IMG/VR virus record: IMGVR_UViG_3300004807_000026
Location: 1 to 58,581 of that record
Source of the DNA: a virus
Lineage: Duplodnaviria; Caudoviricetes
Strand: one strand, 5' to 3'
DNA length: 58,581 nucleotides
In this document: positions 4,602 through 5,288 of the stretch, piece by piece
Layout of the letters: each line of letters starts with the position of its first letter
Position numbering within the stretch: the stretch's first letter is position 1
Translations under genes and position numbers: made by a program
The notes under the pieces: model-generated
Seen by the model: the letters and a program-made list of their open reading frames with translations, nothing else
Database searches by the model: none
Told to the model about the DNA's origin: nothing

Positions 4602-5288
4602 TTAGAACGACCGACTAGACCAAAGCTCGCGGGCGTTTTCGACGTCAATTGTGGCACGTCCAATCCGGACGTTCACCGCGTTGTGTAACTCGACCGTCCA
4701 ATCAAAAAACCTATCCCACTCCGGGGGATTTTCCACGAGGTATTCCTTCAAGTGTTTTTCGCACGGGCACCCGTCAAACGGAAGTGCTGCAAGCCAACCC
4801 TGAAACCAGACGTGTGAATTCTTGCTGCAGTGACGCAGTGCAAAGAGGTGCAGTTCTGCCCAGTACCTGCTGCCTTCTAATGTAATACGTGGACGTTCGA
4901 GCGAGAGGTTGCGCTCGACTTCGTCGGCGGACTTGCCGACCCAATCGTTGTGCTTCTCCCAATCCATTCCTAGCGCGGAGCACACGCGCATCTCAACCGC
5001 GGTAGCGACCGCGTGCTGATCGTGATAGGGGGCGTCGGTCGAGTCTCCCGGTTCTTCGAGTTCCGGGTGAGCGATGTCGAATGCTGTCACGTCTGCTTCC
5101 TTTATCCCGGCCTTGCGGCACTGCCACGCTTCGACCATCTCGTGCAGGGCAACGAGGAAGGCGCTATCGTCCTGACCTCCGTAGTCCGGGACGCTGACCT
5201 GCAGCGAGCCGTCCGGGAGCCAGATCCAATCACCGCATGTAGCGTAGCGAATTGCTACCGGGTCAACCGACTTGATTTCAATCCGCAT
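4602..5288 (-). CDS. fusion: N-terminal HExxE metallo-domain plus C-terminal Erv1/ALR-type FAD sulfhydryl oxidase domain
   Basis: start MRIEIKS overlapping the ATP-grasp stop; LHEMVE..., then YWAELH...LPFDGCPCEKH...FFDWTVELHNAVNVRIGR (Erv W..LH / C..C..H / W....HN.VN signature). Confidence 0.75.
   Translation of the reverse strand: MRIEIKSVDPVAIRYATCGDWIWLPDGSLQVSVPDYGGQDDSAFLVALHEMVEAWQCRKAGIKEADVTAFDIAHPELEEPGDSTDAPYHDQHAVATAVEMRVCSALGMDWEKHNDWVGKSADEVERNLSLERPRITLEGSRYWAELHLFALRHCSKNSHVWFQGWLAALPFDGCPCEKHLKEYLVENPPEWDRFFDWTVELHNAVNVRIGRATIDVENARELWSSRSF

Follow-up and report, generated by a model that had tools for sequence, protein, structure and literature searches.

To our knowledge, Erv-type enzymes have been studied solely in eukaryotes and in their large DNA viruses. 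Most Erv/ALR members are homodimers, and in the work on yeast Erv1 and ALR the second cysteine of the active-site motif is flavin-proximal, the first being the exchange cysteine. According to a review on the NCLDV enzymes, C-X-X-C is the molecular signature of the Erv domain (PMC10598087). In a second source the FAD-proximal pair is labelled CXXC, while the shuttle disulfides vary (CxC, CxxC, Cx4C, Cx9C) and are absent from many of the compact viral Erv oxidases (PMC3509050). Cellular Erv1, ALR and Erv2 (PDB entries 4e0h, 3w4y, 2hj3, 1oqc, 1jr8) combine the CxxC site with a flexible shuttle disulfide of the form CxC, CxxC or Cx4C, and baculovirus Ac92/P33 (3qzy) carries a folded N-terminal fusion which seemingly has no redox role (PMC3509050). 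The closest PDB match to the protein described here was ASFV pB119L (3gwl), a compact viral Erv sulfhydryl oxidase.

Disulfides of phage virions are usually assumed to form post-release. Particles cross-linked by disulfides are described for Qβ, Milano and a siphovirus tail tube in one report (PMC13576161), and disulfides in the bacterial cytoplasm are generally thought to need engineering, e.g. the added Erv1p of CyDisCo, as presented in PMC2946281. In a literature search with most subscription journals outside its coverage, no bacteriophage Erv-family oxidase was found, and no flavin-proximal CxC disulfide or CxC active site was found for any Erv enzyme.

The window analysed here, i.e. the whole stretch of 58,581 bases, is a full IMG/VR virus record with a completeness estimate of 93%. 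Nearly all of its long ORFs are located on the minus strand. Phage genes in the window code for a DNA polymerase A, an exonuclease, a DUF5906 primase/helicase-like protein, a small terminase, an endolysin, an HNH endonuclease, virion proteins and a Holliday-junction resolvase, in agreement with the bacteriophage source proposed in the initial annotation. Among 50,697 database phage records, the DNA polymerase found a best identity of about 27% or less. Using tblastn against the same records, no match was obtained for the 626-aa ORF at 44716–46596, for which large terminase is a guess, for the whole 228-aa protein under study, or for its N-terminal module. The window is a tailed phage without cultured relatives.

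The ORF under study (4602..5288, minus strand; start ATG at 5286–5288, stop at 4602–4604) is real and encodes 228 aa plus stop, in which a metal-site module at the N-terminus precedes an Erv-fold domain. It lies at the end of a co-oriented virion-gene block, and its start overlaps the 3′ end of the upstream ATP-grasp ORF on the same strand by 11 nt. By sequence, no signal-like or hydrophobic N-terminal segment was found in the protein. The motifs on which the initial annotation had been based were recovered in both halves: GDW (19–21), HEMVE (49–53), C57, EPGD (79–82) and APYH (86–89) in the N-terminal half, and WAELH (143–147), CPC (174–176) followed by H179, and HNAVN (202–206) in the C-terminal half.

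The C-terminal domain (4605..4898, minus strand; residues 131–228) was compared with the Erv/ALR family by profile, sequence and structure searches. Pfam PF04777 (Evr1_Alr) matched residues 143–223 with 29.9 bits (E 7.2e-7; profile positions 4–92 of 93), above its curated cut-off of 27.6 bits, and a search of the genome gave the same match. Using phmmer against the PDB, 3gwl was the best match (E 2e-4), with plant Erv1 and ALR next in rank. When a profile of 12 Erv-domain relatives (alignment A3) was searched against the PDB, 17/17 distinct matches were Erv-family oxidases (best E 9.8e-16); this profile includes two canonical CxxC sequences, so that the score leans slightly to the canonical family. 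Similarity at this level far exceeds what chance would give. The structure prediction suggested earlier was run with AlphaFold2 from 29 homologues and gave a model with a mean pLDDT of 93.2 and a pTM of 0.83. The Erv-domain helices in this model span residues 134–152, 159–168, 175–186, 191–209 and 216–225, and the predicted fold of the domain is the helical bundle of the Erv family. In the Foldseek search with the model, ranks 1–22 were all Erv entries (probability 1.00, E 1.3e-3 to 0.17), the modest E-values being due to only half of the model aligning.

The flavin-contact signature of the family, with W-x3-H in helix 1, H-N-x-x-N in helix 4 and a C-terminal aromatic residue, is present as W143, H147, H202, N203, N206 and W223 in the same alignment columns as in 3gwl, 2hj3 and 3w4y; we take these positions, from the structural literature, to be those contacting FAD. 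Among the aligned fused relatives, W143, H147, H202, N206 and W223 were kept in 94/94 and N203 in 93/94, and identity within this set falls to about 33–43%. Strong purifying selection on the Erv signature is indicated by these sequences. Sequence and predicted fold both identify the C-terminal domain as homologous to Erv/ALR, as had been proposed.

The putative redox-active pair is encoded by the codons TGC CCG TGC (4761..4769, minus strand; read from the sequence), giving C174-P175-C176. In the model, this tripeptide is located at the N-terminus of helix 175–186, with C174 as helix cap, C176 in the first helical turn and H179 downstream. Conservation was assessed in the fused relatives (n = 94 aligned), of which 92 keep C174, 93 P175, 92 C176 and 92 H179. 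A total of 96 proteins (the window's own, 91 relatives, P0111, P0164 and two translated from loci L010 and L014) was also examined for the Erv signature, which 91 carried. CPCxxH was found in 89 of these 91, both cysteines were lost in two (P0039 and P0086), and CxxC occurred in none, so the earlier observation that the redox pair is CPC and not CxxC holds for the relatives as well. Upon alignment with 3gwl, 2hj3 and 3w4y, C176 falls on the second cysteine of the canonical CxxC, while C174 is one residue closer to it than the canonical first cysteine. The canonical first-cysteine position, directly after the conserved Pro, is Phe in the phage protein; two residues are inserted, and the new cysteine stands at position −2. 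In pB119L, by contrast, the canonical CxxC follows immediately upon that Pro, and the protein is unfused and belongs to a virus of animals, whereas the phage protein is a two-domain fusion from a virus of bacteria. The phage protein also differs from cellular Erv1, ALR and Erv2 in that the CxC is at the active site and a second cysteine pair is lacking. The FAD-proximal Cys-x-x-Cys that defines the Erv family was not found, and the second cysteine alone is aligned; for this reason the most fitting label is that of an Erv homologue with a predicted variant active site, as opposed to a canonical family member.

Loss of the canonical pair is also what would be expected if the Erv fold were catalytically dead or repurposed, i.e. 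a structural or sensing module binding FAD or nothing, in which the CPC is metal-binding or structural. Such members exist in the family, given that P0039 and P0086 lack the catalytic pair. This explanation is nevertheless given little credence, since both cysteines, the Pro and H179 are kept in at least 92/94 fused relatives together with the whole flavin signature. The second cysteine is moreover invariant among CxC, CxxC and CxxxC relatives (alignment A3), and among the relatives the middle residue (G, K, S, T, E) and even the spacing (CxxxC) change while two cysteines are retained, a pattern more in keeping with a redox pair than with a fixed metal site.

On balance, and with moderate confidence, the most likely product of the ORF is a thiol oxidase of the compact viral Erv type that binds FAD and acts in the cytoplasm, placed behind an unrelated metal-site module. 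In this oxidase, the helical bundle (residues ~131–228) would hold FAD, C176 would be the flavin-proximal cysteine, and C174 would be the solvent-facing exchange cysteine, nearer to C176 by one residue than its counterpart in other Erv enzymes, with the conserved Pro between them fixing a tight turn. Substrate dithiols would reduce the C174–C176 disulfide, and the electrons would be handed to FAD and from there to O2, with H2O2 as product, or to a different acceptor. Like many of the small viral Erv oxidases, the protein would do without a shuttle disulfide. The N-terminal module (HExxE, C57, D71, Y88, H92, E99) would be a passenger or scaffold in the fusion and not a redox relay, a proposal that follows the same logic as that for Ac92/P33.

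The same tripeptide is found in Mia40, where Cys-Pro-Cys is the substrate-oxidising redox motif (PMC4951193), so that a CPC disulfide is able to cycle. Mia40 itself has no Erv fold and no flavin, is a partner reoxidised by Erv1, and shares no homology with the phage protein. The ring of a CxC disulfide is strained, and it is a counter-point to the preferred reading that such a pair might not cycle as proposed.

The predicted site of action of the phage protein is the bacterial cytoplasm, in contrast to the mitochondrial intermembrane space or ER of the cellular enzymes. Disulfide formation in this reducing compartment is plausible because yeast Erv1p alone achieves it in E. coli with the reducing pathways intact: efficient native disulfides were obtained in the cytoplasm with trxB and gor undisrupted (PMC2946281). 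An enzyme of this kind might, on the other hand, be a redox weapon directed at the host, which oxidises low-molecular-weight thiols, thioredoxin or glutaredoxin of the host, or makes H2O2, and thereby shuts down metabolism or a thiol-dependent defence. Such a role would be compatible with a predicted cytoplasmic protein in which no domain dedicated to capturing a substrate is obvious, and Erv enzymes do oxidise small dithiols in vitro, as in DTT assays (PMC3509050). We regard it as quite improbable, given that Mimivirus R596 did not oxidise reduced thioredoxin or RNase A, an outcome that the same paper treats as no surprise for the family (PMC3509050), that no match to the defence-related models of PADLOC was obtained, and that the gene follows the virion block and is not among the early genes. 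Under the thiol-oxidase reading, the predicted enzyme is made late, and its position at the end of the co-oriented virion block makes phage proteins produced late its likely clients.

The N-terminal module (4899..5288, minus strand; residues 1–130) consists, in the model, of a three-stranded sheet and four helices. Its HExxE codons (H49-E-M-V-E53; 5130..5144, minus strand) lie on the long helix 40–60, so that the fusion to an HExxE-bearing domain stands as first described. Residues 1–130 of the window protein were aligned with 62 stand-alone members, giving 63 sequences in which H49, E53, D71, Y88, H92 and E99 are invariant and Y15, T17, G19, D20, W21, E50 (at least 90%), C57, P80 and G81 near-invariant. 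In place of the HExxH of zincin-like metallopeptidases, the motif reads HExxE (H49, E50, E53), with H49 and E53 in 63/63 sequences and the invariant H92 and E99 further downstream. H49, E53 and C57 are spaced i, i+4 and i+8 on one face of one helix, and this face suggests a metal or catalytic site.

The module was frequently found on its own. A whole-protein profile search returned 5081 representatives at E ≤ 0.001, and most of the best 150 of these covered only profile positions 1 to ~125 and were about 115–145 aa long. A second search gave 777 proteins at E ≤ 1e-5. Using P0276 as query for the locus search, related loci were found; using P0280, none were found. These matches indicate a separate, very widespread small phage module. 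Its assignment to a known family was less clear: no family match was obtained in Pfam, NCBIfam or PADLOC, a single weak match was obtained in PHROGs (phrog_7302, E 0.0016), and no match of significance was obtained with Foldseek in the PDB or BFVD. Zincin-like folds fill most of the top 50 rows in both structure searches, as weak matches, and the nearest named Atlas cluster was IrrE/M78 (score 0.79). In its predicted sheet-plus-helix layout with H-E-x-x-[ligand] on a long helix, the module resembles minimal zincins, among them selecase (4qhf), abylysin (4jiu), YbeY (1oz9/1xm5), SprT/SPRTN (6mdx) and IrrE/PprI (8sln). These likenesses hint weakly at a zincin-like fold.

Directly upstream, and overlapping, lies the gene of a 432-aa protein (5278..6576, minus strand), the conserved partner of the N-terminal module. 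The 432-aa protein of the window itself gave no Pfam match. Its homologues in L023, L033 and L039, which were linked to it by a locally built HMM, matched GARS_A with 34.5, 48.2 and 30.1 bits, respectively (cut-off 27). Remote tblastn matches were found in viruses of Aquificae, where they are annotated as PurD or PurK, and the neighbours in the ESM Atlas, which are a lead only, are labelled biotin carboxylase or GARS_A. With three divergent homologues above the GARS_A cut-off, the protein is tentatively assigned to the ATP-grasp family as PurD-like. In Thermocrinis Great Boiling Spring virus, which is among the three Aquificae-virus records matched remotely by the ATP-grasp protein, the two ORFs beside the match proved unrelated to the N-terminal module (hhalign probability ≤ 0.4%).

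Using the local HMM, an ATP-grasp homologue was found adjoining the fusion gene in L001–L006; in L001, the ATP-grasp protein has 90% identity and the fusion protein 63% to their counterparts in the window. Among 23 unrelated viral loci with a stand-alone N-module gene (L023–L045), 14 carried an ATP-grasp homologue at most 3 kb away, in most cases directly adjoining and with either gene first, and the remaining nine had terminase, portal or methylase genes instead. In L008–L015, no ATP-grasp gene was found within 4 kb (0/8 loci). The state of the N-terminal module followed this division: its signature is complete in 7/7 loci with the ATP-grasp gene (window, L001–L006), while in 8/8 loci without it (L008–L015) H49 is changed to G and E50 to K, and C57, D71 and Y88 are lost. 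CPCH and the flavin signature are intact in all 15 of these loci. Across the 94 fused proteins, the N-terminal module is degenerate in 21, each of which retains the CPC; conversely, P0039 and P0086, which lack the CPC, keep the full N-module signature and are not among the 21. This independent decay implies that the two domains evolve as separable functions. The N-terminal module thus appears to go with the PurD-like ATP-grasp gene and not with the oxidase.

These associations could also be taken to mean that the oxidase serves the pathway of the ATP-grasp protein and the metal module, either by oxidising a thiol-containing small molecule or peptide made by the ligase, or by switching the N-terminal module via C57. 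The overlap with the ATP-grasp gene would fit, as would the N-terminal half being the conserved partner of the ligase, both in 14/23 stand-alone loci and in 7/7 fused loci with an intact module. C57 is kept in 89/94 fused proteins, 16 of them among the 21 with a degenerate N-module in which other signature residues are gone. We nevertheless consider this reading unlikely, as L008–L015 keep the CPC and the flavin signature with neither C57 nor an ATP-grasp gene within 4 kb, stand-alone CxC Erv proteins (97–187 aa) exist without such a partner domain, and C57 is equally conserved in stand-alone modules without Erv.

The latter points also bear on the suggestion, made in the initial annotation, that extra cysteines of the N-terminal domain act as shuttle thiols. 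This suggestion is not supported by the comparison: the domain is an independent module, C57 is its sole conserved cysteine, a cysteine pair is lacking, stand-alone copies without an Erv partner conserve C57 equally well, and L008–L015 have lost C57, H49 and E50 with the CPC and flavin signature intact. The retention of C57 in 16/21 degenerate N-modules, which leaves the shuttle idea some residual support, is not explained by the preferred reading of an oxidase behind a passenger module.

Candidate clients of the predicted oxidase were sought among the neighbouring ORFs. Two genes upstream of the oxidase gene, and just upstream of the ATP-grasp gene, a 48-aa basic protein with a C-x4-C pair is encoded (6580..6726, minus strand; phrog_2423). 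Its conserved core begins at M42 of the ORF at 6580–6849, making M42 the probable true start. The window's copy has the C-x4-C pair, as have those of 12 among the 13 Erv-fusion loci that yielded the 48-aa protein; the exception, L001, combines an intact CPC oxidase with a small protein devoid of cysteine. In L003, no homologue of the small protein was found within 4 kb upstream, and L007 and L016, whose upstream flank is missing, were kept outside this count. Among database phages, 16 records had a tblastn match to the 48-aa protein, of which 13 were fetched; in 13/13 both positions are non-Cys, and no PF04777 match was obtained in these 13 records at E ≤ 0.01, while the records behind L001 and L003 did match. 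The cysteine pair thus occurs in 13/14 cases with Erv versus 0/13 without (raw 2 × 2 Fisher p 7.5e-7), but the Erv-bearing phages represent only about three lineages, so that the real support for the correlation is much weaker than this p value. The 48-aa protein as client of the oxidase is accordingly offered as a lead only.

The neighbouring large virion proteins cannot be clients, owing to their near-absence of cysteine. In a census of 49 ORFs, the 3006-aa protein contained zero cysteines; when the four ORFs transcribed ahead of it (15975–20673) are added, one cysteine was counted in 4556 residues versus ~62 expected from the cysteine frequency of the remaining ORFs. The small ORFs at 4050–4465 were also considered as precursors in a RiPP-like cluster, an idea that was rejected: these ORFs carry a single cysteine each and gave no tblastn match in any related locus.

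The distribution of the CxC feature was followed with the Erv-domain profile, which returned 916 proteins at E ≤ 0.001. Motifs were counted in 54 previously unseen proteins among the best 120 of the 916. CPC was found in 10/54, another CxC (CGC, CKC, CSC, CTC, CEC) in 23/54 proteins of 97–187 aa, CxxxC (as CGGGC) in 2/54, and CxxC in 19/54, 18 of the latter forming a tight group of ~154-aa proteins with CP[IVT]C. In a quick maximum-likelihood tree of 72 domain rows, for which one in four CPC rows was retained, the CPC fusions form a single clade (SH-aLRT 100). The other CxC and CxxxC proteins cluster (81), bar three on the CxxC side of a weak split (44), and a long branch (100) holds the 18 canonical proteins; deep branching is poorly supported (44). 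A pattern-based and therefore insensitive scan of 185,579 species genomes yielded five loci, all in MAGs, among them two Pirellula with CGC as well as a Rhodobacteraceae and a Bacteroidetes MAG with canonical CxxC; this count is a poor guide to the frequency of the domain in bacteria. The CxC feature appears, from these searches, to be a trait of a wider, unnamed clade.

The proteins from these searches, among the best 120 of the 916 and in the MAG loci, are unnamed or labelled "hypothetical protein", with one exception, which is labelled FAD-linked sulfhydryl oxidase. Public metagenome protein sets already contain hundreds of unnamed homologues from phages and bacterial MAGs that are Pfam-labelled. 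The earlier statement that Erv enzymes are known from eukaryotes and their large DNA viruses is therefore correct as to what has been studied, but not as a confinement of the family.

A bolder reading, which is less likely than not and less certain than the oxidase function itself, is that tailed phages run their own cytoplasmic disulfide chemistry via a distinct, widespread prokaryotic-virus branch of the Erv family in which the exchange cysteine has shifted, to CxC or occasionally CxxxC. In the present phage lineage the oxidase would then have a dedicated client, the small basic, particle-associated protein, which would have gained its C-x4-C pair solely where the oxidase occurs. If true, this would be the bacterial-virus counterpart of the disulfide pathways of poxviruses and ASFV, and no earlier Erv enzyme would have had a CxC disulfide next to its flavin. 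The analysis also sets apart the HExxE metal-site protein and the PurD-like ATP-grasp protein that partners it, two more phage modules that are very common yet uncharacterised. A Cys-Pro-Cys beside the flavin would extend what is known of Erv-fold chemistry, and the domain would offer a compact (~100-residue) oxidase, already at work in bacteria, for the production of disulfide-bonded proteins. A natural phage Erv oxidase would show that phages solve cytoplasmic disulfide formation themselves, as poxviruses and ASFV do in the eukaryotic cytoplasm.

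In the window, the gene for the HExxE–Erv fusion protein is accompanied by a PurD-like ATP-grasp gene (5278–6576, minus strand), which is a conserved neighbour of the HExxE module. Among the unrelated viral loci that carry this module as a stand-alone protein (L023–L045), the ATP-grasp gene lay within 3 kb of the module gene in 14 of 23, with both gene orders being found, and the two constitute a common phage gene pair that has so far been undescribed. The module also formed the C-terminal part of four proteins of 273–304 aa from some phages (P0149, P0167, P0208 and P0229), the N-terminal part of which was a homing-endonuclease domain of the HNH (and NUMOD3) type. 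Such proteins could reflect the fusion of two genes or, alternatively, gene calls that read through from a homing endonuclease inserted at the site. At 3192–4010 on the minus strand, downstream of the gene for the fusion protein, a family match identified a DUF932 protein (PF06067, E = 5e-28; phrog_12094) within a GC-rich stretch (62.9% GC at positions 3001–4000 versus approximately 50% elsewhere).

The active-site position of the Erv domain was found to vary among the homologues. Two small Erv-like proteins, P0369 and P0370, showed CGGGC, i.e. CxxxC spacing, and in the fused proteins P0039 and P0086 both cysteines were gone, with the remaining Erv signature and an intact N-terminal HExxE module being kept. 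Contigs from metagenome-assembled genomes (MAGs) contained further Erv genes. Two Pirellula MAG contigs (L018 and L020) carried small stand-alone Erv-like ORFs, 90 and 144 aa in length, in which the site reads CGC. The neighbour of the one in L018 is a prepilin-type (DUF1559-like) gene typical of planctomycetes, so that the Planctomycetes may harbour some of the CxC Erv genes on their chromosomes. A canonical CxxC Erv domain was located mid-protein in a Rhodobacteraceae MAG contig (L021, 137–2038), where the open-ended protein exceeds 634 aa and has other domains, possibly glycosyltransferase-like. A Bacteroidetes MAG (L022) encoded a canonical Erv protein of 154 aa with a hydrophobic C-terminal tail, adjacent to a Nudix-like gene; this may be giant-virus DNA binned into the MAG.

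A 48-aa basic protein (phrog_2423) is encoded at 6580–6726 on the minus strand, within the ORF 6580–6849. A C-x4-C pair was present in this protein in 13 of 14 Erv-encoding phages, which represent about three lineages, whereas all 13 homologues taken from database phages without Erv lacked it; in the latter phages, the gene was localized close to head protease, GroES or small-terminase genes.

Cysteine content was determined by an ORF census. The 3006-aa ORF at 6952–15972 (minus strand), for which the sole family match was DUF7178, close to the C-terminus, contains no cysteine. When the four ORFs that follow it (699, 308, 183 and 360 aa) are included, the block of five (6952–20673, minus strand) has 1 cysteine in 4556 residues, versus approximately 62 expected at the frequency of the window's remaining ORFs. 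A possible explanation is that these Cys-poor products are virion proteins that are ejected or extracellular and in which cysteine is selected against, and the near-absence of cysteine in this block is notable in that the same phage encodes a thiol oxidase.
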